DNA of 24,112 nucleotides from positions 1-24,112 of the IMG/VR virus record IMGVR_UViG_3300006879_000851, one strand, 5' to 3'. This document shows, one piece after another, positions 602 to 23,318 of the stretch (its first letter is position 1; every line of letters starts with the position of its first letter). Source of the stretch: a virus (lineage: Duplodnaviria; Caudoviricetes). The translations under genes were made by a program, and so were the position numbers. The notes beneath the pieces were generated by a model that did not search any database, was not told the DNA's origin, and saw nothing but the letters and a program-made list of their open reading frames with translations.

Positions 602-2605
602 TTAAACTACTTGAACTTTACTGCAATTACCTTTTCTTGTAATATAAACACCTGTTGCTCCACGACCACCAGTCATATTGAGATCAGAGGTTTCAAATTT
701 GACTTCTGTGCGATCTGTTTTCATTTTAATAGTTTCATCTTTATACATCGTTAGGATATCTACAAGATCTTGTTTTGCATTGTACGAGTTCTTTAAGATT
801 TTTCTGTTTCCATTAAATGATTTTATATCGACCTTAGATACTCTGTTATTTGAGTATGCCATAATTAAGAACGAAACATTTTCATCAAGGATTGAGTAGT
901 TAACAATATCTTCGTCAAAATTCATCATCCCTGGAATGAATGTCCCTAAAGTATTAGCTCGGGTGTCTTCGATATCTCTTACCGGAATTTTGTAACAATT
1001 TCTAAGTGAATCAAATACTAACACTTCAGCAAGATTATTTGTTTCAAATTTCTTAAAGACTTCATCGCCAGGCTTCAAATGAGGCTCTTGTTGTCCTTTA
1101 AATTTATACATGTAACCTTCTTTTGTAAGGAATATGTTTACATTATAATTCGGGGTATGATCCTCTACAGTAATTACAGGGGCTTCTCTGATTGATTCAA
1201 CGAGACTCTTTCGACCTTGGCCGTATTGTTTATATGTTTCTTCCAAACCTTCAATAACAATCTTGTTGAGTTCTTCTTCTTTACCAATTACGAACTTCAA
1301 TCTTTCGATTTCTTTTTCAAGATTGTCTACGTCTTTTATTTTCTTCAAAATATATTCGGAGTTAATGTTACGTAATTTCATATTGGCAACTTCGACAGCT
1401 TGATCGTAATCGATCTCGAACTTGTTTTGTAAGTTGATTTCAATCTTTTCAGCAGAAGACGTTCTAATAATTTCAATTGCTTCATCAATATCAAGTAATA
1501 CTTTTTCCAAGCCTTTTAATAAATGGAGTTTTTTACTTAATTGTTTAACATCGTAAATTATAGATCGTTCGATTGAGCTTCTTCTGAAATCTAACCATTT
1601 ATCGATAATCGGCCACACTCCAAGAACTTTCGGTAGATCATCTACTAAGATGTTCATATTAGCGCTGTAAGTGGATTGGAGAGGAGTAAATCTAAATAGC
1701 TTTTCGAGGAGCATTTCCATATCTGTTCCACGTCTTGCTGTTACTTCAATAAGCATTCCTTTTAGCCCAGTTAAATCTTTAACATCTGACACTTCACGAA
1801 GTTTTCCTTCTTTTGCAAGTTTCTCAATTCTTTCGATTATTGCTTCCCTTGTTGTAGAGTAAGGAATTTCTGTTATAAGTATTTCATTTCCTGCAATTTC
1901 GGCTTTTCCACGAATTCTCACAGTTCCTTTACCTTGTTCGTTTATTTGTTTAAATGTTTCTTCATCTTTAATAATAGTTCCACCAGTTGGAAAATCTGGG
2001 GCTAAAATTGTCTTTTCGTTTGTTTCTAGATATTTAATAATTGCTTTTGAAAGTTCTTTTAAATTAAATGACATAGTCGAAGAACTAAATCCAACACCAA
2101 TTCCACTTTGAGAATAAGCTAGAATTGCAGGGAATTTAACTGGAAGTACTTCAGGCATCATCATCGATCCATCGTAGTTGGGAATAAAGTTAACAATATT
2201 CTTGTTAAAGTCTTTCATCATATCAAGCGATATTTTAGATAAACGAACTTCAGAGTATCGATCTGCAGCTGGAGCTAAATCTCTTGCTGTATGTTGTCCA
2301 AAGTTTCCTTTTCCTTCTAGCATTGGATGCAATTGTTTGTCTGTTTGAACCATACTAACCATTGTTCCATATGACGAACCATGAGGGTGAAGTCTCATCA
2401 CGGCTCCAGCCATATTAGCAGACTTAGTAAATTTGGTAGCGTTTTGTTCTAACATAGAATATAATATTCGTCTGTGAACAGGTTTCAATCCATCTCGAAG
2501 ATCTGGTAAAGCTCTGTCTAATAGAACATAAGATGCATATTCCATCATCTTATCTTCGATAATATTTTCAATTTTTGTATCAGTAGTAGTAGTCAAGTTA
2601 AACAT
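602..2605 (-). CDS. Type IIA topoisomerase subunit A (GyrA/ParC-like), short CTD
   Basis: RALPDLRDGLKPVHRRILY, HPHG, GNFG, AADRY catalytic Tyr, PDFPTGG, ITEIPY; true start may be TTG at 2596 given AGGAGG spacing. Confidence 0.95.
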   Translation of the reverse strand: MFNLTTTTDTKIENIIEDKMMEYASYVLLDRALPDLRDGLKPVHRRILYSMLEQNATKFTKSANMAGAVMRLHPHGSSYGTMVSMVQTDKQLHPMLEGKGNFGQHTARDLAPAADRYSEVRLSKISLDMMKDFNKNIVNFIPNYDGSMMMPEVLPVKFPAILAYSQSGIGVGFSSSTMSFNLKELSKAIIKYLETNEKTILAPDFPTGGTIIKDEETFKQINEQGKGTVRIRGKAEIAGNEILITEIPYSTTREAIIERIEKLAKEGKLREVSDVKDLTGLKGMLIEVTARRGTDMEMLLEKLFRFTPLQSTYSANMNILVDDLPKVLGVWPIIDKWLDFRRSSIERSIIYDVKQLSKKLHLLKGLEKVLLDIDEAIEIIRTSSAEKIEINLQNKFEIDYDQAVEVANMKLRNINSEYILKKIKDVDNLEKEIERLKFVIGKEEELNKIVIEGLEETYKQYGQGRKSLVESIREAPVITVEDHTPNYNVNIFLTKEGYMYKFKGQQEPHLKPGDEVFKKFETNNLAEVLVFDSLRNCYKIPVRDIEDTRANTLGTFIPGMMNFDEDIVNYSILDENVSFLIMAYSNNRVSKVDIKSFNGNRKILKNSYNAKQDLVDILTMYKDETIKMKTDRTEVKFETSDLNMTGGRGATGVYITRKGNCSKVQVV

Positions 2606-3176: not shown

Positions 3177-3206
3177 TAAAAGAGAGAACGTCAAATGACG
3201 TCCTCT
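3177..3206 (-). terminator. Terminator-like hairpin overlapping the topoisomerase B stop codon
   Basis: AGAGGACGTC-ATTT-GACGTTCTCT followed by CTTTT. Confidence 0.6.
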
Positions 3207-5107
3207 ACAAATAAGTGTAAGTTTTCTGAAATGTAATCTTTTCGGTTAGCACCATCAATCCCCATCCATGTTTCAAGAGACTCGATCATCATCTTCGCAT
3301 CTTCAACAGTGACTCTTACAAGATTTCTAGTTTTGTCATCCATTGCTGTTTCTGCCATAGTTTCAGCATCAAGTTCTCCCAGACCCTTACAACGAGCTAA
3401 AACATATTTGCCTTTAACTTTAGGAAGTTCTTCATCTTTTTCTTTTTCAGAAAAGAAATATAACATAGAGTCATCTTCAAGTTTAACTTCGTATAGTGGA
3501 GTTTGAGCAATATAAATATGACCTTTGTTTAAAAGCTCTGGCATCAGTCGGTAGAACATAGTGATAATCAAACAAGCAATTTGGTGCCCATCAGGATCGG
3601 CGTCTGTTGAGATTATGATTTTGCCATACCTTAATTTTTCAATATTGAACGATTCTAAATCTTTGTTTTTTCTATCAGCTTGAATTCCACAACCAAGAAC
3701 TTTTACTAAATCAGTTATGATCTGATTTTTAAAAATAGTTGGATAGTCAGCTTTTAGACAGTTTAAGATTTTACCTCTTAACGGATATGCAGCTTGGAAG
3801 ATTGCATCTCTTGCTAGAACGATTGAGCCTAGTGCTGAGTGTCCTTCTGCAATAAAAAGCTCTGAATCTTTTCCGTGCTTTTTACTGTCAACAAGATTTT
3901 CTACTCTGTTTCCGATTCCGTCAACTTTTTCATTCAGTTTCTTTTTTAGTTGTTGTTTAGCTCTCAGAGATTGTGAGTTATGTTTCTGAACAGCAAGAAG
4001 ATGATTGATAAACTTTTTAAAGCCTTTTTCGTCTTCTACCATGAAAGCTTGAAGCAATTGCTTTACATGCTTATCAGCGATCTTTTTATATAGCTGTTTG
4101 TTTGTAGATAATTTTGTTTGGTTTTGGAATTCAACTTTATTTGATAAAGCAACACATACATAGCTCACACTTGACTCAATATCTGAGGTCATAAACGATT
4201 TAATGTTTTTAGGAAACAAATTATTATCTCTGCAATACTTACTTACAAAGTTTCTTATTCCAGAAACAATTCCATCGTGAAACGTTCCGTACTCTGACAG
4301 ATACGTAAGGTTTAAATATGATTCTTGAACAGGCTCAGTTGCTGTGGAAAACACAACTTTAATTTTATTAATTTCATCATCGTCATCATACTCAGTTTCA
4401 GGTGAAGTGATGATCGGCGACGTTCTTGTATTATTTACAATTTCGTCGAAATACTCTTCAACTGTTTCATAATGGAATTCCGTAGTTTCGCCATTATGAA
4501 TAAAGCTTAATTTAACTTTTGGAGAACCTACAGCGAATCTTTTTACGATGTCTTCTACTTCGCTTTTGTCATATTTCGTTCTAGGGTAAACTTCTTCATC
4601 AAGTTTAAATGTTACTCGAGTTCCATGTTTTTCTTTACTGCAAGTTTCTTCTTTCAGTCCATCGACAATTTCTCCACCGTTGATAAATTCAACAGTATGT
4701 TTTTTACCATTCGACCAAGATTCAACTTTAAAAAGTTTAGATGTGAAGTTGAGCACTGTGGCACCAACACCATTTGTACCCGTGGTCGTCTTTTCATTTT
4801 CTTCGTACTTCGTCGAGGCAAACAATGTCGTAAATAACAAATCATAGTTTTTTATTCCGTCTGTTTTTCCGCCAATAGGAATACCTCGACCTGTATCTGT
4901 AATAGAAACTGTTTTCAAGTCTTCAAAAAGTTCAACAGTTACTTGTCCGTCTTCATAATTGTTTATTACTTCGTCTGTAGAGTTAGCAATAATTTCTTTT
5001 AATCCATGCTGATAGTTTGAAGAACTTCCGTAGAAAATAGAAATCTTTTCTCGAGATTGTTCTCTGTCACTCAACGCTCTAATTTTATCTTTGTTTTCTT
5101 TGCTCAT
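3191..5107 (-). CDS. Type IIA topoisomerase subunit B (GyrB/ParE-like)
   Basis: GHKL motifs EIIANSTDE, DTGRGIP, GTNGVG; TOPRIM motifs EGHSA, PLRGKILN, DADPDG; KGLGE. Confidence 0.95.
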   Translation of the reverse strand: MSKENKDKIRALSDREQSREKISIFYGSSSNYQHGLKEIIANSTDEVINNYEDGQVTVELFEDLKTVSITDTGRGIPIGGKTDGIKNYDLLFTTLFASTKYEENEKTTTGTNGVGATVLNFTSKLFKVESWSNGKKHTVEFINGGEIVDGLKEETCSKEKHGTRVTFKLDEEVYPRTKYDKSEVEDIVKRFAVGSPKVKLSFIHNGETTEFHYETVEEYFDEIVNNTRTSPIITSPETEYDDDDEINKIKVVFSTATEPVQESYLNLTYLSEYGTFHDGIVSGIRNFVSKYCRDNNLFPKNIKSFMTSDIESSVSYVCVALSNKVEFQNQTKLSTNKQLYKKIADKHVKQLLQAFMVEDEKGFKKFINHLLAVQKHNSQSLRAKQQLKKKLNEKVDGIGNRVENLVDSKKHGKDSELFIAEGHSALGSIVLARDAIFQAAYPLRGKILNCLKADYPTIFKNQIITDLVKVLGCGIQADRKNKDLESFNIEKLRYGKIIISTDADPDGHQIACLIITMFYRLMPELLNKGHIYIAQTPLYEVKLEDDSMLYFFSEKEKDEELPKVKGKYVLARCKGLGELDAETMAETAMDDKTRNLVRVTVEDAKMMIESLETWMGIDGANRKDYISENLHLFVEDVI

Positions 5108-5171
5108 TTTTGAAATGACCTCCGATGTAGTAGTTGATAGATATTTTACAAAATATATCTCTCTAGTAATT

Positions 5172-5200
5172 ATTATATATAGTTATCTCTCAAACGTAAA
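5172..5200 (-). promoter_or_regulatory. Repeat-family promoter, class II (TTTACG-17-TATAAT)
   Basis: -35 at 5195-5200, -10 at 5172-5177; AGAGAGAT leader. Confidence 0.65.
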
Positions 5201-5213
5201 CACTTATGTTAAA

Positions 5214-6245
5214 TTATTCGTCAAGGCCATACATTTCATCAAAGAACATTGCTGCCAAACTATCTTTGTCCTTGTGAGGGTTCTCTAACTCGCCCTCGTA
5301 CATGTCCACTTTTCGAATACTTCTTGTAAATGCTGTTTCTAAACAAGTTCTTAAGTAACCACCATAATTTTCTACATTCTCATTTTGTTCAACTTCATCA
5401 CAAACTCTATAGATCAGACCTTCATTCATTCCTCTTTCTAAATATTCTTCTATGAGTCTATTTCTAGTAGATTCTTTTGATTCAAAATTTTTTCGACGAT
5501 TTTTATAAGAATTGTTAACAGCATTGTTAACAGATTTGTTAACAGGTTTTATATATTCTTTTTTATAATTATTATTAAAATTATTATTATTAGTGGTTCT
5601 TTTTGACCCATCAAGGGGTTCGTTTTGAACCTTCATAGGTTTTATATAGGATGGTTCATTTTGACCCATCTTATGATATGACTGGGATGGTTCATTTTGA
5701 CCCATCAGGGAGTCACTTTTTTGTTCGTCGATATTTTCAGCAATATTTTCAACAATATCTTCAATTTTTTCTTCTAAATTTCTATCTAAGTCTGGATTAC
5801 TTTTTCTTCTTTTTTCTAATTCTTTTTCAGCTTGTTTTGCTTTTTCTTCTCCTTCTAAAACAGCATCATCGGCAGCGAGATTTACTAGATAAATATCTTT
5901 ATCTGTGTATGATAATTTCATAGGAAATAATTTATTAGGTTTTCCAAGTCCTTCTTGAATCTCTTCCAACAGTCCGAAATCTTTTAGCTCTTTCTTACAC
6001 CTTTTGTATGTAGATTCTGACATTCCTAAAAGTTCTTCGGCACTTTCTTGAGTTAGCCTGACATAATACTTTCCATCATCAAGCCATTCATTACTCATTG
6101 AAAGTTTAATTCTGTCTAGTAATAAGATATAAACCATTTTTGTATTAGGTTTCATCTTTCTGTACTTTTCTCCGATAATTAGAATTTTTGGAACCTTGAA
6201 GAATATTAGATTATCCTGATCATCCTTTGTAAAATATTTGCTCAA
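5214..6245 (-). CDS. repA: Replication initiator protein A (RepA_N family)
   Basis: N-terminal FFKVPKIL..YRKM...KMVYILLLDRIKLS...W.D..G..Y...KKEL..GLL...QEGLGKPN is typical RepA_N winged helix; central repeats; AAGGGG SD with TTG start. Confidence 0.85.
   Translation of the reverse strand: MSKYFTKDDQDNLIFFKVPKILIIGEKYRKMKPNTKMVYILLLDRIKLSMSNEWLDDGKYYVRLTQESAEELLGMSESTYKRCKKELKDFGLLEEIQEGLGKPNKLFPMKLSYTDKDIYLVNLAADDAVLEGEEKAKQAEKELEKRRKSNPDLDRNLEEKIEDIVENIAENIDEQKSDSLMGQNEPSQSYHKMGQNEPSYIKPMKVQNEPLDGSKRTTNNNNFNNNYKKEYIKPVNKSVNNAVNNSYKNRRKNFESKESTRNRLIEEYLERGMNEGLIYRVCDEVEQNENVENYGGYLRTCLETAFTRSIRKVDMYEGELENPHKDKDSLAAMFFDEMYGLDE
5512..5706. repeat. Intragenic replication origin candidate: iterons, AT-rich segment and TTGTTAACAG repeats
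   Basis: Four GGTTCnTTTTGAmCcwTC repeats at 5595, 5617, 5653, 5689 (5649-5670 = 5685-5706); AT-only stretch ~5559-5592; TTGTTAACAG at 5512, 5524, 5536. Confidence 0.75.
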
Positions 6246-6266
6246 TTTTTACACCCCTTATAGTAG

Positions 6267-6296
6267 TTGAAAAAATGGGGCAACATCTGTTATAAT
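6267..6296 (+). promoter_or_regulatory. Sigma-A type promoter antisense to the repA leader
   Basis: TTGAAA-18-TATAAT with extended -10 TG. Confidence 0.55.
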
Positions 6297-6302
6297 AAAT
6301 AA

Positions 6303-6358
6303 AAGGAATATGATGTTACCCTAAAAATAGCTTGAGCTTCCGACTCAGCTATTTTTTT
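6303..6358 (+). ncRNA. Candidate sRNA-1, countertranscript of the repA leader
   Basis: Promoter 6267-6296; terminator AAAAATAGCT...AGCTATTTTT (6323-6356) with loop CTTCCGA; no ORF. Confidence 0.5.
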
Positions 6359-6372
6359 ATTTCACTTTATTG

Positions 6373-6401
6373 TTGACATTATAAATGTAACATATTATAA
6401 T
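6373..6401 (+). promoter_or_regulatory. Perfect-consensus sigma-A promoter
   Basis: TTGACA(6373-6378)-17-TATAAT(6396-6401), overlapped by imperfect palindrome ACATTATA...TATAATGT. Confidence 0.8.
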
Positions 6402-6407
6402 GTATTT

Positions 6408-6480
6408 AGTAGTTGAGTTAAGCAGAAATGCTTAATCCCATCCCACACTTTTTTCTCCGATTAGTGTGGGGTATTTTTTT
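6408..6480 (+). ncRNA. Candidate sRNA-2 (~73 nt), putative trans-acting antisense regulator
   Basis: Consensus promoter; hairpin TTAAGCA-GAAA-TGCTTAA; terminator CCCACACT-loop-AGTGTGGG plus T7; G.U pairs fit the plus strand only. Confidence 0.65.
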
Positions 6481-6481
6481 A

Positions 6482-6847
6482 TCAAAATTCATCGTATAGC
6501 AATTCAAGATAATCACTTTTTCCGCACCCTTTACAAATATTAGTAGAGCTTGATATTGTATTACATAATTCACATCTGGCTTTTCCATATCGAACATCAT
6601 CTTCGACCTCTTCAACAAAATCATCAAGGACCCGAACGACCTCAGAAGTTACGTTTTTAATTGGAAGAACATCGTACTCATATTTGAATAAATTAGTTTC
6701 ATCTACCTCTACCCATTTCCCAGAGACGCTCGACCAGAACTTTTCCCAAAATTGATATTCCCCAAAATCAATTTCGCCAATGTCTAACAAAAAATCACTT
6801 TCTTCATAAAAACTTTCTAAAGCATCGTTAGAAATTTTTATTTTCAT
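6482..6847 (-). CDS. Acidic hypothetical protein with C-terminal zinc ribbon
   Basis: CELC...CKGC; AAGGGG SD. Confidence 0.75.
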   Translation of the reverse strand: MKIKISNDALESFYEESDFLLDIGEIDFGEYQFWEKFWSSVSGKWVEVDETNLFKYEYDVLPIKNVTSEVVRVLDDFVEEVEDDVRYGKARCELCNTISSSTNICKGCGKSDYLELLYDEF

Positions 6848-6923
6848 TTATAGCACCCCTTAAGTTATTGACCTTACAATGTTTATTATAATACAAATAA
6901 TTTAAAAAATACAACACTATGTC

Positions 6924-6956
6924 AAAAAAAAGAATAAGCCCGAATTTGAGCTTATT
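6924..6956 (-). terminator. Intrinsic terminator after thymidine kinase
   Basis: AATAAGCTC...GGGCTTATT stem followed by CTTTTTTTT on the minus strand. Confidence 0.7.
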
Positions 6957-6964
6957 CCAAGTTT

Positions 6965-7537
6965 TTATGAAAAATAACATTTCTCACAAAGTGCAAGATA
7001 TTTACTTTTTTCAGAAACAAATATTGCTCCTTCTCGGGCAACCTTACCATCAACTATTCTACCATTATAATCAGCCTTACTGTAACAATCGTCTGTTTGA
7101 CAGTTCATTACAATAAAGTGTATCTGAGATTTTTTTAAATTGTTTATTAAGTATTCTGAGCTTTCAAAATAACTTCCAGTGAAAGTAGTTTCTAATCCAT
7201 AAAGAAATAAATTAACGTCTTTATTTTTAAGATAATTTAAGAGCTCTTTGAGAGCTTTTCTTGAGAGGAACTGTATTTCATCAATATAAATATTGTTGAT
7301 GCTTGTACGCTCTAATAAAGTATCTAGGAAGCTTATATTTCCTTCACCATTTTCAGAAAGACAAAATCCCTCAATTGAGTCTCCGTTTCTACTTTCAATA
7401 AAAGTTCTTTCTCCAGCTTTCTTTTCAAAACTAACTGCTAAAGGTAGATTGTCTTTTTGACCAAAATAGTCAATCATCTCAATCATCTTTTTCGATTTTC
7501 CTGATCCCATCAATCCAGTAAAAAAATTAATATCCAA
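6965..7537 (-). CDS. tdk: Thymidine kinase (TK1-like)
   Basis: P-loop GLMGSGKS, IESRNG, IDEIQF, YGL..F.G.YF, C-terminal Y.ALC..C zinc ligands. Confidence 0.85.
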   Translation of the reverse strand: MDINFFTGLMGSGKSKKMIEMIDYFGQKDNLPLAVSFEKKAGERTFIESRNGDSIEGFCLSENGEGNISFLDTLLERTSINNIYIDEIQFLSRKALKELLNYLKNKDVNLFLYGLETTFTGSYFESSEYLINNLKKSQIHFIVMNCQTDDCYSKADYNGRIVDGKVAREGAIFVSEKSKYLALCEKCYFS

Positions 7538-7597
7538 TTTGCGCTCGCTCCTTTTTGTAAACTAGTAGTATTTTATCTACAAAAGAGGAAACGTAAA

Positions 7598-7783
7598 TTA
7601 AAGTATATTCTTTTCTTTTAGCTTTTCAACAATAAGTTCATAGTCTTTCGAAGGTAATATTTCACCAAACAATCTAGCGTATCTAATTCGTAATCCCTCG
7701 ACATACTCGTCAAGAGATTGATTACATGTAAATAATCCTTTTTCTTTTTCTTTAGTTAACAAATCAATTGCTGTTTCACTCAT
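7598..7783 (-). CDS. Small hypothetical protein (~61 aa, MSETAIDLL...)
   Basis: AAAGGAGAG SD before ATG 7783; the longer 99-aa call overlaps GGCT. Confidence 0.65.
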   Translation of the reverse strand: MSETAIDLLTKEKEKGLFTCNQSLDEYVEGLRIRYARLFGEILPSKDYELIVEKLKEKNIL

Positions 7784-7796
7784 ATTATTCTCTCCT

Positions 7797-8198
7797 TTAG
7801 AATGTTCCATTTTCAATTTTGTCACCGAGTCTAGTAGACATTGGACCTTCAGTATTGTAAACATATACATACGCTTCAAGTTGACCGGAATCAACATGTA
7901 AGGACTTTACTTCTCTGTTGTATAAATTATAAGGATTATTAGGTCTGTATCCTTCAAGGAAGTCTAAGGCCTCCATAGTCTCTTTTAATAACTCTTCACG
8001 TATCTCGAAGATTTCTCCAAATACTTTTCCAGTACCAGGAATCAGGCAAGGAAAGTCGCCTCCAACAAATTCATAAAGATCAGCGTTATTGATATAAGCC
8101 CTACTCTTTTTTAAGATAGCTCCAGCAGGAATTACATGATGATTTCTCTTGCCCTCTTTTAACGTCCCATAAACAAATACCTTGTTGAGTTTTTTCAT
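7797..8198 (-). CDS. Gamma-glutamylcyclotransferase (GGCT/AIG2-like)
   Basis: VFVYGTLK.G..NH, FP.L, V.GE.FE, LDFLEG, Y.R, AYVYVY. Confidence 0.9.
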   Translation of the reverse strand: MKKLNKVFVYGTLKEGKRNHHVIPAGAILKKSRAYINNADLYEFVGGDFPCLIPGTGKVFGEIFEIREELLKETMEALDFLEGYRPNNPYNLYNREVKSLHVDSGQLEAYVYVYNTEGPMSTRLGDKIENGTF

Positions 8199-8255: not shown

Positions 8256-9023
8256 TTACGAAGCTTCTCCATCTAGTTTAGCGAATACTCTTTGAACTCT
8301 TCTGTACATCTTTCTTTTCGAATCTGATAGATCGATCTCTTCAAAAAGTTCTTCTAGAGCGTCCTCATTGTTAGTAGACTTAATAGTCTGTTCTAACTCT
8401 TCATTATTTACTGCAGCCTCAATGATTTTTCCAGTGACTTCTAACCATCCAAGAACTTCATCAATGTATGCTGTTCCATAATGTTGTCTGAACTCAATTG
8501 TTCCATATTTAACGTAAGAGCTAGGGTTTAGAGTGAAGTAACGACCATTGATCGAGTTTCTAAATTCTTCTAAAGAGCTCATTCTGTTGATACGTTCTGT
8601 AAGATATCCAATGCTCTTGCAGTAAGCGTTATTTAGACGGTGCTTTCTGATAATACTTCTGATAGCGTTTCCTTCATACTTGTTGTAAAGTTGGAATACT
8701 CTTTTTAACTGATCAATTGTTAGATCGCTCACATCATGGTGAATATGTAATCCTGTGTTTTTGTTGCATCTAACTTTTAATACGTTTCTTAGAACATAAA
8801 CAACTTTTTCAAGTTCGTCTGTACTTGTAAGAGGTGGTGAAACGATTTCCCATCCATTAGGAAGTGAACCATCATATTGAACTTTCCACTGACTATGATT
8901 GACAGCGCTTCCATAAGTAGAACCAACAGCATCAATTCCATGTTCTTGTAACGCCTCAACAATTGTTTCTCTTGATTTCTTTGTAGCAACCTCAAGCTCA
9001 ATTCCAAATTTCATTTGTCTCAT
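8256..9023 (-). CDS. Phage-type amidoligase (COOH-NH2 ligase, Amidoligase_2-like)
   Basis: FGIELE, W....DGSL, EIVSPPL, TGLHIH, RY..LN, GTIEFRQH.GT. Confidence 0.85.
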   Translation of the reverse strand: MRQMKFGIELEVATKKSRETIVEALQEHGIDAVGSTYGSAVNHSQWKVQYDGSLPNGWEIVSPPLTSTDELEKVVYVLRNVLKVRCNKNTGLHIHHDVSDLTIDQLKRVFQLYNKYEGNAIRSIIRKHRLNNAYCKSIGYLTERINRMSSLEEFRNSINGRYFTLNPSSYVKYGTIEFRQHYGTAYIDEVLGWLEVTGKIIEAAVNNEELEQTIKSTNNEDALEELFEEIDLSDSKRKMYRRVQRVFAKLDGEAS

Positions 9024-9093
9024 TTTAAATCTCCTCCGATTAGTTAGTTAGTAGTTGATTAGATAAGGTTTATATATCTCTCATCTATATACT

Positions 9094-10948: not shown

Positions 10949-11545
10949 TCAGACGATCTCTAAGTATTGTTTCTTGACAACTTTTCTTAATTTATTTCTG
11001 AATCTTACAAGACGTTGGTTTGCGGCCTGTCTTGAGATTCCATATTTTGTAGCGTAATCTTGAATTGTATTGTTTTCTCGATCGAATAGAATTTTTAACA
11101 TTTCTTGTTCTTCTTGTTTTGTATTCTTATGAATTATGTCCAGTAATTCATAAGTATTCAAACCGTCCATTGAAGAGTCATCGATTGAAAACATATCTTC
11201 TAACTTGAGATCGTCGTCACCGTGTGTAGCGTTCATTGAAAGCAATCCGTTGTGCTGATTCTTTTTAGAGTACTTATAGAATGTGGCATTTCTAACACCT
11301 TTCATAAGTTTGTAGTGAAGATACGTTGTGAAGCAATATCCTGTTGATGGATCGTAAGCTTCAAATCCTCGCCATAACTCAATTTCTAATTCTTGTCTGA
11401 AATCATCTTCTTCTACTTGATTGTAAACAAATTTGTTATTTGCTTTTCTCATTGCTCTGATCACCATCGGTGTGAATTGTTCTCTTACCTCCTCAAAATT
11501 CATTTCTCTTGTAGTTCCGTCCGAAAAAATAATTTCTTTAATCAT
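10949..11545 (-). CDS. Sigma-70 family alternative RNA polymerase sigma factor
   Basis: Region 2 (EEDDFRQE..I.LW....YDP..G..FTTY) and region 4 HTH (TIQDYATKYGISRQAANQR); GGGGGA SD favours ATG 11545. Confidence 0.85.
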   Translation of the reverse strand: MIKEIIFSDGTTREMNFEEVREQFTPMVIRAMRKANNKFVYNQVEEDDFRQELEIELWRGFEAYDPSTGYCFTTYLHYKLMKGVRNATFYKYSKKNQHNGLLSMNATHGDDDLKLEDMFSIDDSSMDGLNTYELLDIIHKNTKQEEQEMLKILFDRENNTIQDYATKYGISRQAANQRLVRFRNKLRKVVKKQYLEIV

Positions 11546-12007
11546 GATGCATGTTTCCCCCAAATACTGTATTTTTATTTGTCTCTTTTATTTTTGTATC
11601 TATGTTTATATAAATGTAAACTAAAAAAAGAATAATTTCTTTAATATCTTTTTTACTTAAAGTGTTTATTTACATCTCACTTATACAATTTTATCTTGGT
11701 GAGCATCTACCGAACATATACCAAAAGTAACCTTTTTCATCCTGATACTTAGGTACTAGAGTGTTTTTTTTGGGGGTAATTCTTTTTATGTATTTGCAGA
11801 TGAAGAGACTCAACCCTTAGATATATTGAAAATTCGAAGAAAAACTAAGAAGTAAAACAATATTAAAGGTATAAAGAATTGATCGAATATATCGCCTGTT
11901 CTTTGTAAAAAATATAGCAAATTAAATTATGTCGACTTTATCTATTATATATATAAAAATTAAAAAATCTAGAGTTACGGTTAAAATAATAAAATAAGTA
12001 TTTTATG

Positions 12008-12396: not shown

Positions 12397-12951
12397 TCAA
12401 CTTCTCCTCTTTAAACATTCATCATTTTGAACTTCTTCAATTATTCGATTGTCTAAAAGTTTTTTCATTATTCCACACTTTTCGACATTCCTCTTACATA
12501 AAGAGCAATTGTTCTCAATAAACTTATCTAAGTGAGATTGATTATCGAAGATCCCAATAGCTTCACTTTCATAGATTTCAATTTCTAAACGAGGATTTTT
12601 ATTATCCAAGTAAAGTCTGTCTGCTGATGGTAGAACTACGTCATCATCATAGTAAGCTCCTGCATCAGCAAGTACGTCTAATGGAACCTTGAAAAAGTTA
12701 TTCGGGTCTTTTCTTTTTCGATCAAGATAGAAAGTTATTTTCACATGTATTAGCTTTCCTTTTTTAGGTTTAATCCATCCTTGGTTCTTTATTTCTTCTT
12801 TGACATAATCTTCAAAGAAAGCATTAAACTCTTTTGTTTCTGGGGATGGATAAACCTGTACGTATCGTTTATTTCCACTTGCTGCAACACGATACTTCAA
12901 GTATCTGTTAACGCTCGGTGGGAGTGGTGATGTTAGTTTTAATATTTTCAA
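12397..12951 (-). CDS. rusA: RusA-family Holliday junction resolvase
   Basis: LPPSVN.Y, D.NN..K...D.L..AG...DD, D.KNPR.EI.I; Cys-rich C-terminal extension. Confidence 0.85.
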   Translation of the reverse strand: MKILKLTSPLPPSVNRYLKYRVAASGNKRYVQVYPSPETKEFNAFFEDYVKEEIKNQGWIKPKKGKLIHVKITFYLDRKRKDPNNFFKVPLDVLADAGAYYDDDVVLPSADRLYLDNKNPRLEIEIYESEAIGIFDNQSHLDKFIENNCSLCKRNVEKCGIMKKLLDNRIIEEVQNDECLKRRS

Positions 12952-13795
12952 ATAGTTTCTCCTTTATGAAACCTTGAATAATATTAGTAATGTCTTCGAC
13001 TTCATGCTCAGATATAATTAAATCAACTTTTTCTTCTAAGCCAGCAAAATCTTCCTCGTCTGCTTTGATTCGTCGGTTGAATTCTTTTTGGTCGTCGCCT
13101 CTGACTAACCCTCGAAGTTTTCTTTGAGACTCATCAGGAGATAAATATATTCCAATAACTTTATCTTTTCCGAGGTCTTCAATTAAGTCTTTATACCCTT
13201 GTGGATCAGTGACCGAGATTGCTACTCTGTTGTTATCTTTAGCTTTAGAAATTTTTCTTAGTAAATCAGAACGGCGAATTCCGTAACTCCATTTTTCGTT
13301 GTTTGCTGAATAAAAATGTCGAACGGCCAATAAAGAATCTACCATCTCTAAGTCTTCGAATTCTTCTCTAGAACAAAAATCATAATCAGAAACAATTCTT
13401 TCTCCGTTTCTTCTTGGACGTGTCGTTACAGATTTTACTTTTACATGACCTTCTTTTGTTAGGCAGTGTAGTTGGGTGCTTTTTCCAGAACACGTTTTTC
13501 CTAGTAAAACAACAAGTTTTCCATCAGTTTTACTTTCTATAGAAAGATTTTTATGTGCTTCTTCTAAATCGTGGGAACTAAATGGTCCATCGATCTTGTG
13601 AAGAAGTGTTCCGTTATCATCTACAAAAACAATTGTGTGCCATCTTTCTACTCCGTACTCTACCAATAGAAAAGGATTCAATTCAGCGTCGATTTCAATT
13701 ACTTCAATATTTTCAAGATTAGCCTCTGATATTTGACGTCTTTGGTACGTCAGTAGAGGGCAATCTTTTTTATAAAAATAAATAATTTTAGTCAT
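12908..13795 (-). CDS. Thioredoxin-like domain fused to guanylate-kinase-like NMP kinase
   Basis: N-terminal FY...CP / EID / YGV..T.VF.D..G Trx fold; C-terminal GKTCSGKST, TTRPRR.GE...DY.F, YG, R...RGD. Confidence 0.8.
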   Translation of the reverse strand: MTKIIYFYKKDCPLLTYQRRQISEANLENIEVIEIDAELNPFLLVEYGVERWHTIVFVDDNGTLLHKIDGPFSSHDLEEAHKNLSIESKTDGKLVVLLGKTCSGKSTQLHCLTKEGHVKVKSVTTRPRRNGERIVSDYDFCSREEFEDLEMVDSLLAVRHFYSANNEKWSYGIRRSDLLRKISKAKDNNRVAISVTDPQGYKDLIEDLGKDKVIGIYLSPDESQRKLRGLVRGDDQKEFNRRIKADEEDFAGLEEKVDLIISEHEVEDITNIIQGFIKEKLFENIKTNITTPTER

Positions 13796-13797
13796 TG

Positions 13798-14910
13798 TTA
13801 GTATTCCTCCGATGATTCAATAATTTTGTTTAACTCTTCAATAGCTTCAACAGGAATGAAAGCTTCATGCTTTAAAAGCCAATCCGATACTTGCTCTTTC
13901 AAGCTCTTGGTAGGAATATATACTTGAGAGTCAAATCTCGAACTTCCAGTAACAACATTTTTAAATACTTCTGAAACGATAACAGCGTTTCTCATTTTGT
14001 CTACTCTCTTTTTATCTTCTTCACTTGAGATAGGAACTGAATTTGGTCCATATTTTTCAATAAAGAAATCAAAAGCTCGTTCCTTGATTTCATCAGAGTT
14101 TTTACTAGAAGTTAATCGATGACTAATGTACTGAACTTCTCTAGAGTTCTCCACTAACAATTCAATAATTTTGCTAGAATGCTTGGTAGCGTCAACTTCT
14201 GACCATAATCTTGACGTTTCCCAAGTAAGATCGAATTCTCGAACTGTTTTTCTATCCCTGTCTAAATCTAGCAAATCAGGTGGAAGATTATATCCATATT
14301 TGAACCCCTCCATAGAACTAACGTATAGTCCGTTTACGAAAAGCTTTCCTCGATGTCTTTCATCAGTAAGTATTTCACAGTCTCCAGATTGGATAGATTC
14401 ATAGTTTTCTTGTAAAAATAGAATTGACTCTTTTATTTTTACTACATCACTTGAACTAACGTTTTCAATTTGAATTCGTAAGTTATTATCCGGAACCTTT
14501 GACCAAATATGTTTTCTGTCGACATCCACAACTAAAAGTTTTGATTGGTATCTCTTAGAGTTGATAAATTTTGGTCTCCACACTTCTCTTGCTCCATAGT
14601 TATAGATTGTTACGTTTTTGTTTAATCGAGTTAAAACAAGTAAAGCAATTTTGTAGCCTTCTCCGTATTTTCCTATTAAAGATTCGTCTTCTGTTTTTGT
14701 TGAAGAACCTAACAATAGTGAAGTTGTAGTTAAAACTGAGGACTTATTTCCAAGAGTGAATACCTTATCTAAAGAGTTATAATTCCAAAACATTTCATTG
14801 CCCTCACTGGAACTTTGATCAACTGCGTTTTGAAATAATTCTCGAAAAGCTTCTACAATTCCCCAATCAGGAACATAATCAGGTGTTAAACTTAGTTCAT
14901 ACCTAGCCAT
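13798..14910 (-). CDS. GHKL/HATPase-family ATP-binding protein
   Basis: RELFQNAVD (motif I), LLLG.S.K, IGKYGEGYK (G-box), LD.DR. Confidence 0.7.
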   Translation of the reverse strand: MARYELSLTPDYVPDWGIVEAFRELFQNAVDQSSSEGNEMFWNYNSLDKVFTLGNKSSVLTTTSLLLGSSTKTEDESLIGKYGEGYKIALLVLTRLNKNVTIYNYGAREVWRPKFINSKRYQSKLLVVDVDRKHIWSKVPDNNLRIQIENVSSSDVVKIKESILFLQENYESIQSGDCEILTDERHRGKLFVNGLYVSSMEGFKYGYNLPPDLLDLDRDRKTVREFDLTWETSRLWSEVDATKHSSKIIELLVENSREVQYISHRLTSSKNSDEIKERAFDFFIEKYGPNSVPISSEEDKKRVDKMRNAVIVSEVFKNVVTGSSRFDSQVYIPTKSLKEQVSDWLLKHEAFIPVEAIEELNKIIESSEEY

Positions 14911-14957: not shown

Positions 14958-15572
14958 TTAAATACTGTCAATAACGATTTTTGACCAATTTTCTAGTCGT
15001 CCATAAAGTTCAGGCTTTCTTAAATCTTCGATCTTTATGAAATCCCCTTTTAGCTCTTCAGTTTCTTTTACGCTAATCTGAGTATCTTCTGGAACTTCAA
15101 TTTTAGTTAGTAATCCAATATGAACTTCTCCAACTTCGTCAGAATCGTCATTAATTAGACCAATAATTTTTAAGTCGTTTCCGATAGAAGAAGAAATATT
15201 TAACTCTTCATTTAGTTCTCGAGTTAAATTGATGAGCGCTTGCATCTTGAACTCTTGATGGGGAATGTAATTCATATGACCGCCAACACCGACTGAAAGT
15301 TTAGAGTGAAGTCTTGTTTCTCCAGCTCCTTTTAGTCTTTCATATACGAACATTTCATCTCCACGAGTGATGAAAGCATATGGGATAGGTTGCTTAAACT
15401 GAGGGTCTTCTTCAGCCGTACCACGTCTCAATTCGAAGAAACTTCCAGAAATGTTAGACATGATCGTATTGATTACATCTTCATTTGTTTCGACTCCTTG
15501 GAATTCTAGTGAATTATTTTCAAATACTTCTTTTCTTGGTGCTACAATAATAATTTCATCCATTTTTGACAT
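14958..15572 (-). CDS. NUDIX-family phosphoesterase
   Basis: AEEDP.FKQ.IPY, E.RLH...S.G.GGH, REL.EE, GLINDD...VG.VH.G. Confidence 0.85.
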   Translation of the reverse strand: MSKMDEIIIVAPRKEVFENNSLEFQGVETNEDVINTIMSNISGSFFELRRGTAEEDPQFKQPIPYAFITRGDEMFVYERLKGAGETRLHSKLSVGVGGHMNYIPHQEFKMQALINLTRELNEELNISSSIGNDLKIIGLINDDSDEVGEVHIGLLTKIEVPEDTQISVKETEELKGDFIKIEDLRKPELYGRLENWSKIVIDSI

Positions 15573-15593
15573 TGTTTTTCCTCCGATAACTTT

Positions 15594-16104: not shown

Positions 16105-16470
16105 TTATAGGTTTTCGTATTCTAAGACTAATTTGTTCATTTCCGGGTCTTGATAGGCGATTCTTTTGAACAAAGAAAGCTCTTCAAGTTCAATTCTTCT
16201 AGCTCTCATCTTCTCTAGAATTTGCTCTTTTCTAGCTGATAAACTAGATTCGCTTTCTTTTAATCTGAGAATTCGGGCTTTAATATTTTTTTGTACCATA
16301 TGTTCAGGTAAGTAGTTGGCAAATATAGCATTTCCTTCTCCACTTGGATTAGAGTTAGAGGTTACAATTACTTTATCTCCTCTCTTTAAGTTAGAGAATC
16401 CGTTAGTTAAGAATGTGTAAGTTTTTTCTGGACTTGATTTAAAGTAGACTTGTGCGTATTTTTCAACCAT
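16105..16470 (-). CDS. Hypothetical protein, paralog of the adjacent ORF
   Basis: ATCGGAGG SD before ATG 16470; shares V.F...P.K.Y.FLT, L.RG..V.V and A..DP.M with 16518-16889. Confidence 0.75.
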   Translation of the reverse strand: MVEKYAQVYFKSSPEKTYTFLTNGFSNLKRGDKVIVTSNSNPSGEGNAIFANYLPEHMVQKNIKARILRLKESESSLSARKEQILEKMRARRIELEELSLFKRIAYQDPEMNKLVLEYENL

Positions 16471-16517
16471 TATAAATTCCTCCGATTTTTTAGTAGTTGA
16501 GGTCAAGCTAAAGGGAA

Positions 16518-16889
16518 TTAAATCCCTTTAAACTCGTCCAAGATTTCTTTCATTGATGGGTCTTCTTTTGCTAGAAGTTCGTAGATTTGAATTTCTTCAA
16601 TTTCTTTACGTCTTTCTTCTAGTTTTAGTCGGAGTTCTTCTCGACGTGCTTCTTTTTCAAGTCGCAGCTTGTGAGCATCTAAATCAATTCGTTGAACAAC
16701 CCACTTCATGATGTTCATAGGAATAGAATGATTTCTTTCTCCATAACCTTCAACAGTCGCAACTTTTAAACCGTTTCGAGTATCAACAACAACTTCTTCT
16801 CCTCGTTCTAAGTCTTGGATATCAGTTAAAAATTGATAAGATTTGAATGGGTTTTCATCAAAAAAGACAGATACATATTTTTTAGTCAT
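16518..16889 (-). CDS. Hypothetical protein (beta-rich N-terminus plus coiled coil)
   Basis: ATCGGAGG SD before ATG 16889. Confidence 0.75.
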   Translation of the reverse strand: MTKKYVSVFFDENPFKSYQFLTDIQDLERGEEVVVDTRNGLKVATVEGYGERNHSIPMNIMKWVVQRIDLDAHKLRLEKEARREELRLKLEERRKEIEEIQIYELLAKEDPSMKEILDEFKGI

Positions 16890-17133
16890 TTGTGTTTCCT
16901 CCGATTTTGTAATTGTATGGGTAATCATTTGGATGTTCTGTAGGTGTTATTTCAACGATAGTGAGATCGATATTGAATTTCTCAGATAGTTCGACGAATG
17001 GTCCGAATTTTCTGATTTCTTCTTTTGTGAACATATAAGCTTTAGATGTTAATTCGATCATTCTAATAGCTTTTTCTCGACTCTCTACGTTTACTAAACC
17101 TCGTTCAGTATGAACAATCATTGAACTAATCAA
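16882..17133 (-). CDS. Hypothetical protein (~80 aa)
   Basis: Fills the gap in the operon, overlaps neighbours by a few bases. Confidence 0.6.
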   Translation of the reverse strand: MISSMIVHTERGLVNVESREKAIRMIELTSKAYMFTKEEIRKFGPFVELSEKFNIDLTIVEITPTEHPNDYPYNYKIGGNTND

Positions 17134-17504
17134 TGAACATAACCAAGATCAGCGTTTTCTTGTCGTTCGTAGTTAATCTTGTTTTTATCTTTGTAACGTT
17201 CAATTACTTCTTTCTCATCCATTCCTAAAGCTAAGAAAATATTAGACATAAAGTGAAAAGCATCAATTGCTTCGTCTTTCATTTTTTCTTCTTGAATATT
17301 CAATTCTTCTTCAGTTAAGTGAGAATAGTCCTTCCAAGATTTATGAAAAGGCATTTCTCTAAATAATTCGACAACTTCTTCAATTAAGAAATATCCGTGC
17401 TCTTTAATATAAGCTGATCTTTCTTTAACTGTCATTTCTTCGAAGTTATGTCCCATACGTTTTTGAAACTTAAGTTGGGATTGTAATACAAATTCAATGC
17501 TCAT
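17130..17504 (-). CDS. Dimeric all-alpha dUTPase (MazG-like NTP pyrophosphatase)
   Basis: EE..EL, K.WK, DE.ID..HF, Y..KNK.N..RQ; GAGGA SD before ATG 17504. Confidence 0.8.
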   Translation of the reverse strand: MSIEFVLQSQLKFQKRMGHNFEEMTVKERSAYIKEHGYFLIEEVVELFREMPFHKSWKDYSHLTEEELNIQEEKMKDEAIDAFHFMSNIFLALGMDEKEVIERYKDKNKINYERQENADLGYVH

Positions 17505-17545
17505 GATTATGTTCCTCACCTTTCAAAAATAAATCTTACATGTTA

Positions 17546-17573
17546 TTTATATCTTGAGTATTTAAAACGTAAA
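17546..17573 (-). promoter_or_regulatory. Class II promoter (TTTACG-14-GA-TATAAA)
   Basis: -35 at 17568-17573; same architecture as 17844-17871. Confidence 0.55.
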
Positions 17574-17583
17574 CAAAAGGTTT

Positions 17584-17808
17584 TTAAATACTTTCGATTA
17601 ATTCAACTCTTCCATTTGATACATCAAAGACCATTGGAATCGTTTTTCCATTGCTAAAAACTTTGAAAATATTAGTAATTCTTTCATTGTCTTTAAGCTG
17701 AGATAATCTTTGTTTTAAACTGGAATCGTCTTTAAAACTTCTCAATTTCTTTGAAACTCCTTCTTGATAAACAACTGTAGCAATAAGAATGCTTTCATCA
17801 TTCGCCAA
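17584..17808 (-). CDS. Hypothetical protein (74 aa)
   Basis: AAAGGAGG SD, TTG start, own class II promoter. Confidence 0.7.
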   Translation of the reverse strand: MANDESILIATVVYQEGVSKKLRSFKDDSSLKQRLSQLKDNERITNIFKVFSNGKTIPMVFDVSNGRVELIESI

Positions 17809-17843
17809 TTTAGTTTCCTCCTTTTGTTCGTCGTTCTAAAAAA

Positions 17844-17871
17844 ATTATATCTTTAGCTTTAGAAACGTAAA
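17844..17871 (-). promoter_or_regulatory. Class II promoter (TTTACG-14-GA-TATAAT)
   Basis: -35 at 17866-17871, -10 at 17844-17849. Confidence 0.6.
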
Positions 17872-17890
17872 CAAAGAAAAACGAAAGATT

Positions 17891-20800
17891 TTACTCTTTC
17901 GCTTTCTCCGTTTGCATAAATACGTTTTCTTGATCGTATTTATTTATTTTAAATATTGTATGAGGGAATGTTGAGCCAGTTTTTCTTAAAACAAACTCAT
18001 CTCCACGTCTGAATCCTACTAGAATCATTTTTGTGCCTCTTGTGAACCATGAAGTGTCTAAGACTTCTTTATCTTTTCCACTAACTCTGATAACTTTCTT
18101 GTCATAGTGAGAAAATTGACCTTTAGAAAGCCTAACTGTTACAACACCGTCTTGAGTAGAAACATAGAAAAGTGATTTTCCTTTGTTCTTATCTACCACA
18201 GTTCCTGAAATAACGCTGATCTTATTCTGAGGGACTCTTCTCCCACGAATCGTCTTAAAGCCTGCGATTTCAGGTATTCTTGGAAGATTATTGAACTTTT
18301 CAATATCGAAGTATTTGTGCAATGGTATAAAGTCCATTTCGTGGTGGTTTGAGTAAAACAATATTGTTTCCATTTCCCAAGCTTCAATTGTTCCCATGCA
18401 ATTTTTCATCCAGAATTCTCTCATTTTTATTTTATTGAATTCGTCTGCGACTTCTGGAAGATAAACCCACTCTTTTAAAGGTTCAATTGCTTTGCCATAG
18501 TGTTTTTCAAATGATTTCTTATCAATTTCAAGTACTCCACTGTCATTAAACTTGTACTCTACTTTATCTTTTAAGTTTTTAATAAAATAAGTCTCGATTT
18601 TGTTATTCATCTCAACTTTATTTCTTCCAAAACAAGCCTGTCTGAAATGGTACAATTCAAGTTCATCTTTGAACTTTTCTTTGTCTACAAAGTTCATAAC
18701 AGCTGGAAGTTGGACCATTGTTATTTTCTTTCGCTTAGGGACTACTCTTCTTACATACTCAACCATTAATTTTCTTCGATCTTTATTGAATCGGTCAAAA
18801 CAGCCAGCTTTTATTAATATAACGCCTCGACCTTCTGAAATTACTTTCGTTTCAATAATTCTTTCATAAAAATCGTCAAAACTGTTGTAAGGTCGATTGC
18901 TTATTATCTTTTGAATAGCGTCAACACCAAGCCCTGGAATAGGTTTTAGACCAAATAGAATTTTACCTTCACTTTCTAAAGGAGTGAATCCCATATCTGA
19001 GTCATTGATGTCTGGGTTTAAAACGTATTCTTTCATATCTCCGATTGCTTTTGCGATAGAGCCATAATCTGTTCCTGATGTACTGTCTCCAATCAATCCA
19101 GCGTTAATTGATAAGCAAGCTGTTTTCCAGAAAACTGAACCGTATCTGTGACAGATGTTCATTTCAATCATTAGAATGAGAGTGTAACCTGCAATGTGTG
19201 GTAGTGAGAAAGCATAACCGAATTGAGGTTTTAATAACATTTCCCATACATAATTTAAGAAGTGATCAGAAGTTCCAGCAAGATTTCCCTGTTCATAGAA
19301 AAGGTTTCTTTGTTCTTCAATTAGTTTTTCATTTTGCTTAGCTACAGCTTTTCTGAATTTGTTTGCTTGAGTCAATGTAAAGTTTGAAATTCTCTCGTCC
19401 ATTGAAAGCTGCATTAGTCCTTCTTGAGTATCACAAATTCCGTACCTGTCTAGTAAGTGACCTTCTAAGATTTGAACTTCTGTTTTATTCAATCCATAAG
19501 CTTCCATCTCTTCGTACCATAAATTAATATTGTTCTTAAATCTAACGAACTTATCTAATGGCTGCTCTCCATCTGAGCTTAGTCTCATTAAAGAGTTTCC
19601 AGCACATAGCTCGTTGAAGTTTCTTGGCTGAATTTTGTTTAAAGCTTGTTGACCAACTGCGGTCTCAAATTGGAAAGCATTCATTACATGCCCTTCGAAT
19701 AATAAATCGTACATTTCAGGATCGTTCATTTCTAAAACGTCTGGATGTAAGTACTTCTCATATGTTTCTCTTAAACTTCCCTGCCATTCAATCTTTTTAT
19801 GCTCAATTAATAAATCTAGGGCTGTTCTGATTCTGTCTAGAGCGTTGATTGATAAGAAATCTAGTTTTAATCCACCCATATATTCGCTGTCTACTGCATC
19901 GAATTGTGTGATTGGTAGACCTGATGTTGTTTTCATCATAGCATTTTGCTTTGTGTAATCGTCTGGGAAAATGATGACGCCTGAGGCGTGCTGTCCGCGT
20001 CCCGAAACTAACCCCGAGATTGAATACATTGCTTCTTTCAATCCTTCGTAGTTTCCTACTTCTCTTATAAACTCTTTAACTGGAGCTTTACCTTTTTCTG
20101 AGTTTCCTTCGAAGCATTCTATAATACTCCAAGCTCCACCTTTGTCTGTAGGAATCAAGTTTGCCAAGTTAAATGCAATGTCCCTGTCAATTCCTAATCC
20201 TCGACAAGCAGTTAGGACAGTAGATCGAGAACCCTCAGTTGTTGTAGTTCCCATATTTAAAACTTTATTTTCACCGTAAGCTTCTTTGATAATATCGATG
20301 ATTTCAGCTCTTTTTGAACCTTCAGTATCTACGTCAATATCTGGTAGTTCTACACGTTCTTTTGAAAGGAAACGCCAGTGAGGTAGATCGAATTTCAGTG
20401 GGTTGATTTGTACGATATCGAGCAAATAGTTTAAGTAATAACAAGATGCTGATCCACGACTAACTCCAACCAATGAAACGGTCCACATTAAGTCAATTAC
20501 GTCCTTTGTTAGAACGAAGTATGAAGAAATTGGTTGCTTTAACGCTTTTGTAATGTGATATAACTCATCAAGTTCAAGGTTAATTCGAGATAAGTTTTCA
20601 TCGTTTAATTCTTCTTTCTTCTCGAGTAAACCTTCAGCAATTAAATGAAGATAGTATCGATCTACTTCGTAGTTACTTTCTGAGTACTTCTTGATATACT
20701 CATACTTTTCGTAATACGGCTCCAATAAATTGTTCATTTTGTATTCTGGAATATGAGCTTTTGGAACTTGAGTTTCCATTTTGAATTCAATAGGTTCAAT

Positions 20801-23246: not shown

Positions 23247-23318
23247 TTTGTATTTCCTCCGATTGTGTTTTAAATTTGTTAGATTGAGAAATTTTTAAGA
23301 ACTTCTGAATCTAAAATC

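Follow-up and report, generated by a model that had tools for sequence, protein, structure and literature searches.

A conserved candidate small RNA with seeds that match tags at gene starts across the replication arm of a pBS32-like phage-plasmid

The small RNA locus and its homologues

The window (the whole analysed stretch of 24 112 nucleotides) carries all its genes on the minus strand: gyrA- and gyrB-like genes and genes for RepA_N, thymidine kinase, amidoligase, an actin-like protein, a sigma factor, RusA, guanylate kinase, dUTPase, DnaE and ThyX. Their order is that of the Bacillus subtilis plasmid pBS32 and of the Geobacillus phage GR1, and identity with pBS32 amounts to 40% for RepA, 57% for SigN, 57% for AlfA and 70% for GyrB. 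Genes for head, tail and terminase are present in both the pBS32 and the GR1 record, and the window is accordingly part of a pBS32-like Bacillus phage-plasmid. Its SigN orthologue (10949-11563, minus strand) is likely the driver of many of the target transcripts described below. A GyrB search of the genome collection returned only Clostridia-type loci (33-34% identical), which do not contain the RNA described here, and no relative emerged when viral contigs were searched with RepA. Three features of gene organization were also seen, all on the minus strand. The thioredoxin-like and guanylate kinase parts, which are two genes in pBS32 and GR1, form a single 295-aa ORF (12908-13795); 16105-16470 and 16518-16889 are tandem phrog_3489 paralogues, both with tagged Shine-Dalgarno sequences (SDs) and with true starts downstream of the longest-ORF starts; and SigN-type promoters (TTTACG..GATA[TA]A) lie at 6925-7000, 17130-17600 and 17830-17900, before the thymidine kinase gene, the dUTPase gene and a 74-aa gene, as in pBS32.

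The small RNA (sRNA) is predicted on the plus strand. Its SigA-type promoter, TTGACA-17-TATAAT (6373-6401), agrees with the consensus at 12/12 positions and was the best of 27 promoter sites in window positions 4500-8000. The predicted transcript of ~73 nt (6408-6480), whose start is placed by promoter spacing, is supported by its fold, by an alignment of eight homologues and by covariance model matches. Its fold comprises a free 5' tail, a GAAA-loop hairpin and a terminator hairpin that runs into a U tract; at −23.3 kcal/mol (z = −5.05) it was equalled by 0/200 shuffles. The 5' seed (6408-6424) begins with a free toehold, nt 1-7 (predicted unpaired probability in the window 0.99), and could be extended to 17 nt by opening hairpin 1 (6417-6436). 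The intrinsic terminator and its U tract occupy 6440-6480, and the terminator loop presents the second seed, CUCCGAU (6455-6461; predicted unpaired probability 0.76), the complement of an AUCGGAG variant of the SD. Promoter and transcribed unit are thus as given in the preliminary description; the GAAA loop that it noted is present in the window but is not kept in the homologues, where hairpin 1 is always predicted with variable sequence, register and loop. The sRNA has its own promoter and intrinsic terminator and no conserved ORF: a 17-codon ORF on the minus strand over the locus was rejected as not conserved, with a start codon after an SD-like site in only 2/8 homologues. No LexA box was seen at the sRNA promoter on inspection. 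Of four RNA runs considered, three offered contigs of even depth, and the fourth, a raw run, gave no reads. The Rfam search suggested earlier gave no family match, with 0 matches at gathering score for the window and only three weak, unrelated ones (E 0.38-3.5).

A conserved 121-aa gene (6482-6847, minus strand) converges on the 3' end of the sRNA, and its mRNA, if read through, would be fully antisense to it. The convergent partner of a type I antitoxin RNA is a small hydrophobic toxin peptide; this role was rejected for the sRNA, since the 121-aa protein (phrog_28968) is acidic and cysteine-bearing. On the other side, a predicted minus-strand promoter (6421-6394) would make the sRNA divergent to rep. 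A second plus-strand unit (6267-6358), with an extended -10 promoter (6267-6296) and a bidirectional terminator (~6325-6358), sits inside the likely repA leader and is a probable RepA_N countertranscript or attenuator. Similar units are found upstream of rep in pBS32, GR1, L050 and L051; these four share a ACTTTGGTCGG motif, which is absent from the window.

The promoter-hairpin-terminator unit (6373-6480) recurs as eight distinct sequences, which were aligned: the window, the pBS32-like L062, GR1, L066, L063 (G006), L080, L095 and G003. The RNA of G005 is identical to that of GR1. All eight homologues agree at nucleotides 2-11 and in the loop heptamer CTCCGAT, so that conservation of both seeds, which the preliminary description had proposed to check in relatives, is observed. 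The -35 and -10 boxes are kept in 7/8, with unrelated spacers. In the unedited alignment both partners differ in 6/10 pairs of the terminator stem, and pairing is kept in 86% of cells vs 36-49% in slid controls; the covariation score was reached by 0/500 shuffles, a comparison in which relatedness alone can also beat the shuffles. Stem cells include 14 G.U on the plus strand vs 1 A.C. The 5' seed is predicted to be accessible in 6/8 homologues and the loop in 7/8; in G006 and L095 the 5' seed is partly paired by prediction (unpaired probability 0.29 and 0.36). Most homologues have repA next to the RNA; in L063 another gene lies between the two, and L095 keeps the RNA with neither repA nor the 121-aa gene as neighbour. 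The L095 copy (L095:3758-3826, plus strand) is an orphan with a decayed promoter and few phage-like ORFs, next to tRNA genes on a chromosome-like Bacillus contig, and may be a prophage remnant.

Two kinds of wider scan were made. A promoter-plus-seed pattern gave 46 loci in viral contigs, which were treated as chance matches because none of the 32 searched with the RNA model was better than E 0.02. Scans for seed plus loop found a promoter or terminator context in 4/5, 4/38 and 6/41 matches, one of the last six being the window's own sequence and several coming from contigs already counted; the remaining matches were dropped by eye.

Tags at gene starts and a sibling loop after terS

The 5'-seed complement TCAACTACT occurs six times in the window, always on the minus (coding) strand (0.27 expected, 0/100 shuffles). 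The sixth copy is the RNA locus, and the other five lie just upstream of an SD: at 20-28 (a gene cut by the contig end), 5129-5137, 6262-6270 (repA, RepA_N, 5214-6245), 9050-9058 and 16492-16500. ATCGGAG is found 10 times, again on the minus strand only (1.46 expected, 0/100 shuffles); seven of these serve as SDs, one belongs to the RNA locus, and the remaining two fall within coding regions (6170, 19039). Both tags stand in the leaders of the gyrB-like gene 3191-5107 (tags at 5120-5137), of the amidoligase gene 8256-9023 (9034-9058, including an 11-nt loop match at 9034-9044) and of gene 16105-16470 (16480-16508, with a 16-bp 5' duplex at 16492-16508). The SD tag occurs by itself at 13807-13813 before the thioredoxin/guanylate kinase gene 12908-13795, at 15581-15587 before gene 14958-15572, at 16899-16905 before gene 16518-16889 and at 23257-23263 before thyX (22227-23246). 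The preliminary description had five genes with the first motif, seven with the second, three leaders with both and the 11-nt match, all of which hold; its coordinates included one flanking base, and its list missed the longest pairings, namely that at 16492-16508 and a predicted duplex of 17 bp (3 G.U) over the UUG start of the gyrA-like gene 602-2596 (2588-2604, minus strand). Its suggestion of a link to copy control is weak, because the repA site, which is not conserved in relatives, pairs well in the window only (−12.8 kcal/mol vs −9.7 in pBS32, −7.5 in G003 and −7.3 in G006).

The distribution of the tags was analysed in six RNA-bearing genomes (the window, pBS32, GR1, G003, G005 and G006) and in three controls: G004, the sole RNA-less relative, which is a complete SigN-bearing genome (SigN 39%, GyrB 57%) with no match to the RNA covariance model, SPP1, and SPbeta 70-120 kb (50 kb), phages here standing in for the host chromosome. 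Genes were called with a simple custom ORF and SD script that favours SD-like starts, not the ATC prefix. In an unbiased ranking of 8-mers from −35 to +21, ATCGGAGG-type and CAACTACT-type words, i.e. seed complements, were in the top 14 in 6/6 RNA-bearing genomes, and G004 gave generic SD words only; the enrichment at ribosome-binding sites (RBSs) for which the preliminary description proposed a count is thus present. In pBS32, 13/13 copies of TCAACTACT are on one strand and 11 of them at starts (P = 3e-15). ATC precedes GGAG in 51/260 SDs of five RNA-bearing genomes vs 3/216 in controls, and genes with an exact tag number 0/70 in SPP1 and 1/77 in SPbeta 70-120 kb.

Predicted targets were defined by a 5' duplex of −11.5 kcal/mol or better, a threshold set afterwards to include 9-mers, or by an exact SD tag. 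They make up 9/28, 27/98, 34/102, 17/90 and 12/60 genes in RNA-bearing genomes (between one in five and one in three of an element's own genes), and 5/137 in G004, 1/70 in SPP1 and 1/77 in the SPbeta part. The structural arm contributes 1/24 and 0/27 against 26/74 and 34/75; the tagged classes are replication and nucleotide genes, with structural genes at 1/51. At a cut-off of −12 for the 5' duplex, the real seed selects 11-22% of genes in RNA-bearing genomes and 0-2% in controls, and shuffled seeds average ~1%. Tags lie mainly at −34 to −22, −11 to −8 and +4 to +16, varying within the ribosome footprint; the 5' tag has no fixed place and may precede the SD, lie between it and the start codon, or fall within the opening codons. 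With the consensus taken from Table 2 of PMC6751061, a SigN-type promoter lies ahead of 11/19 targets in pBS32 and 12/22 in GR1. It had been supposed that the two seeds might act on one target. The two tags do co-occur above chance in pBS32 (nine genes), GR1 (five) and the window (three), but not in G003, G005 and G006, and such pairing is not required, as most targets bear a single tag. The sigN gene itself is tagged in 3/6 genomes only, and nrdF, primase and rusA in 0/6. The RNA-less relative has two hairpins in which ATCGGAG and CTCCGAT make up the stem (G004 80868, minus strand, and L114 near 5050).

A terminator-like hairpin with the same CTCCGAT loop and a different stem lies between terS and terL in 4/4 RNA-bearing genomes with terS: pBS32 (L058:27812-27876, minus strand, followed by tRNA genes), G003 (L156:3724-3807, minus strand), GR1 (L061:18137-18219, minus strand) and G005 (L165:3839-3921, plus strand). 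G004 has terS (61%) and lacks this hairpin, so that it is without the RNA, the tags and the terS loop. In a terminator scan (6-44 hairpins per RNA-bearing genome), which missed the bulged terS stems of GR1 and G005, the CTCCGAT loop appeared only at the RNA locus and after terS; it appeared in 0/92 terminator hairpins of the controls.

Probable pairing with the tags and competing explanations

We consider it very probable, judging from the sequences, that the RNA pairs with the tags. The best 5' duplexes, of 13-17 bp with G.U, fall on core genes (12-17 at or near starts across genomes): gyrA at −18.8 or better in 5/6 genomes, nrdE in pBS32 and GR1, dnaB in four and dnaE in four genomes. When sites were picked on Watson-Crick identity alone (59 sites), 37/66 substitutions facing RNA nt 2-10 proved G.U-compatible. 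Opposite the same nucleotides A>G is seen at 12/177 and T>C at 1/118 (P = 0.011), in a test that was narrowed afterwards (the 14-nt version gave P = 0.07) and that counts orthologues as independent. Pairing-breaking C>A is still common (17 vs 25 C>T). Covariation of seeds and leaders between relatives, which the preliminary description had put forward as a check, was not significant: the pairing of sites with their own rather than another RNA ranked 13 of 120 permutations. Among orthologue sites the own RNA is favoured at 25/38 and not at 13, including gyrB of pBS32; sites that do follow the local RNA variant are gyrA and nrdE in pBS32 and gyrB in G003. Being anti-SD-like, the loop gives duplex energies that by themselves fail to tell the genome sets apart. 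Net cofold in the window reaches only modest energies (best, −11.7 kcal/mol).

The sRNA probably represses. A loop that covers the GGAG core of the SD, together with the many 5' duplexes that cover the start codon or first codons, makes inhibition the sterically favoured outcome. The same facts weigh against the strongest competitor, in which the same tags are paired and the mRNAs are activated or stabilised, through 5'-end protection or leader remodelling, or in which the RNA acts late in the lytic phase. Activation has a precedent in B. subtilis RoxS, described as protecting an mRNA 5' end from RNase J1 and stimulating 30S binding (PMC5419742), and some 5'-seed tags are near SigN start sites. 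The sibling loop in the late terS transcript would suit late-phase use; the sRNA promoter, however, is of the host SigA type, not SigN. We regard this alternative as improbable.

The G.U-compatible substitutions also speak to another reading, in which the tags are bound by an RNA-binding protein that the element encodes, or are DNA operators, and the locus is a minus-strand decoy carrying both tags, or just a further operator at the divergent rep promoter. We judge this distinctly unlikely. Tolerance of G.U at the tags is matched at the locus by the 14 to 1 bias in the terminator stem, and the promoter boxes and U tract are kept on the plus strand, even though the minus strand also folds well (z = −4.64), shows AUCGGAG in a loop and would be transcribed by read-through from the 121-aa gene. 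The window 9-mer does overlap the minus-strand promoter-like site (6421-6394); however, tags keep no fixed distance from promoters and occur inside operons (dnaB codons 4-8), and some duplexes extend over 17 nt and match the RNA variant of their own genome (gyrA, nrdE, G003 gyrB).

The presence of the CTCCGAT loop between terS and terL in every RNA-bearing genome with terS, and its absence from G004, would fit a sensor in which AUCGGAG-tagged early mRNAs pair with CUCCGAU terminator loops and cause read-through, the sRNA serving as a buffer that sets the level required for late genes to be expressed. This is slightly less credible again, as it leaves unexplained both the 5' seed and the place of the tags on SDs and start codons. 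Finally, a local cis element (a RepA_N countertranscript, or a cis-antisense to the 121-aa gene, the tags having arisen incidentally through leader duplication) is highly unlikely: the RNA does lie beside repA in most homologues, the converging gene is conserved and staphylococcal RepA_N plasmids use an antisense RNA of ~83 nt (PMC5703833), but by prediction the sRNA is divergent from the likely repA leader and does not overlap it, the unit at ~6303-6358 (plus strand) fits a countertranscript better, cis pairing would not keep two short seeds or tags in dissimilar leaders, and L095 has the RNA with neither neighbour.

Proposed role and related systems

Since its seeds match tags at the starts of the element's own genes, the sRNA is likely one brake on the element's replication programme. 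It is, as far as the comparisons above go, a real, conserved small-RNA family with seeds matching private tags across its own replication regulon. The core proposal of the preliminary description, a multi-target, SigA-type, plus-strand sRNA, is well supported by the promoter boxes, the seeds, the co-varying stem, the enrichment of the tags and the absence of tags where the RNA is absent. Pairing over an SD or start codon is an established way in which sRNAs block 30S binding. On the model that we favour, and think reasonably likely, the sRNA, transcribed with SigA, would repress translation in trans and so impose a threshold on the SigN programme. Its 5' end and terminator loop would pair with the tags UCAACUACU and AUCGGAG at the starts of non-structural genes, and pairing over the SD or start codon would prevent 30S binding and ribosome loading. 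The first 7-9 nt of the 5' end would serve as a toehold, from which the duplex could grow to 13-17 bp as hairpin 1 opens; the loop would pair directly with the tagged SD, and either seed alone may suffice.

Whether the main job of the sRNA belongs to the carrier state is, in our estimate, evenly balanced. There an RNA made constitutively would bind and neutralise transcripts that leak from the genes for gyrase, ribonucleotide reductase, helicase and polymerase and from nucleotide genes. In pBS32, sigN is under LexA repression, and SigN switches on its own gene together with a regulon for nucleotides and replication; SigN also competes with SigA and lowers SigA-dependent transcription (PMC6751061, PMC10601692). 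Once LexA no longer represses it, SigN would drive tagged mRNA to very high levels and depress transcription by SigA; because of both, the RNA would be titrated on induction and translation would be switched on sharply. A bolder version, which we hold only tentatively, is that pBS32-like elements use an sRNA and not a CI-type protein as master repressor, with the sibling loop after terS reusing the tag. About a third of non-structural genes would then carry private RBS address tags and be silenced in the carrier state, and the late terS loop would shut the early programme down or gate late genes. XRE/CI-type Pfam families were absent from the 61 pBS32 proteins scanned (of ~98 genes), a set that left out structural and most large proteins and gave one weak MerR-like match.

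The sRNA would work like c4 or RoxS and belongs to neither family. The c4 RNA of P1/P7 is likewise a small RNA of a plasmid prophage, in which loop-exposed sequences pair around an RBS, block translation and support lysogeny; its target is the mRNA of the antirepressor ant (PMC12197685), whereas the present sRNA finds matches in 12-34 genes of each element, spread over the replication arm, and has its own promoter and terminator. Membership of the c4 family was rejected, as there is no Rfam match and the targets are replication and nucleotide genes; no antirepressor family was found among 30 window proteins or the 61 pBS32 proteins. RoxS-type sRNAs of Firmicutes expose a C-rich seed that pairs in trans with G-rich, SD-like sites of several mRNAs; they are host-encoded and act on metabolic genes (PMC5419742). 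The present loop, in contrast, reads an element-specific three-base prefix of the SD and is joined by a second, unrelated 5' seed, and RoxS/RsaE membership was rejected because Rfam gave no match. P22 sar, lambda OOP and Phi24B 24B_1 are phage small RNAs that bias the lysis-lysogeny decision post-transcriptionally, each through one regulator gene, and none is described in the cited review as acting regulon-wide via repeated tags (PMC12197685). RNAI of pSK41, in RepA_N copy control, resembles the sRNA in size, in its two stem-loops and 5' tail and in its repA_N neighbour; RNAI is, however, counter-transcribed within the rep leader (PMC5703833), whereas the sRNA is predicted to be located outside the likely leader and its match to repA is not kept in relatives. 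The antisense-sigN transcripts of pBS32 likewise restrain the SigN programme of this element family through a threshold set by RNA, but they are cis-encoded and overlap sigN (PMC10601692), so that locus and mechanism differ. Our literature search, whose coverage excluded older pBS32/pLS32 papers and most subscription-journal papers, found no description of the sRNA or the tags.

The phage small RNAs covered by that review act on one or a few genes (PMC12197685); the sRNA appears to have co-evolved with tags across a whole replication regulon. Such a system would let an element silence itself and leave host mRNAs untouched, and an orthogonal pair of RNA and RBS tag is a possible synthetic control part in Bacillus. 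B. subtilis NCIB 3610, a tractable laboratory strain, carries the predicted sRNA on its plasmid pBS32 (NZ_CP020103.1, 75,276-75,345, minus strand), for which SigN-dependent hyper-replication without raised repN transcription and the indirect repression of alfAB are stated as unknown in PMC6751061. A post-transcriptional layer with gyrA, nrdE, dnaB, dnaE and alfA as predicted targets makes these questions testable, partly by existing Rend-seq data.

The central part of the RNA was considered as a possible third seed and rejected as a family feature: it behaves as one in the pBS32 RNA only, with matching runs of at least 9 nt in eight leaders (17 nt in one case), and its matches also extend to six leaders of GR1. 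A separate leader motif, TATAAT...GAGAGAT, follows SigA-type -10 boxes and often lies in a hairpin loop. It is found in the window in the leaders of genes 602-2596, 3191-5107 and 8256-9023 and at 30-70, with six copies in pBS32, nine in GR1 and none in G003, G004 and the controls. The middle of the pBS32 sRNA is complementary to this motif over up to 17 nt.
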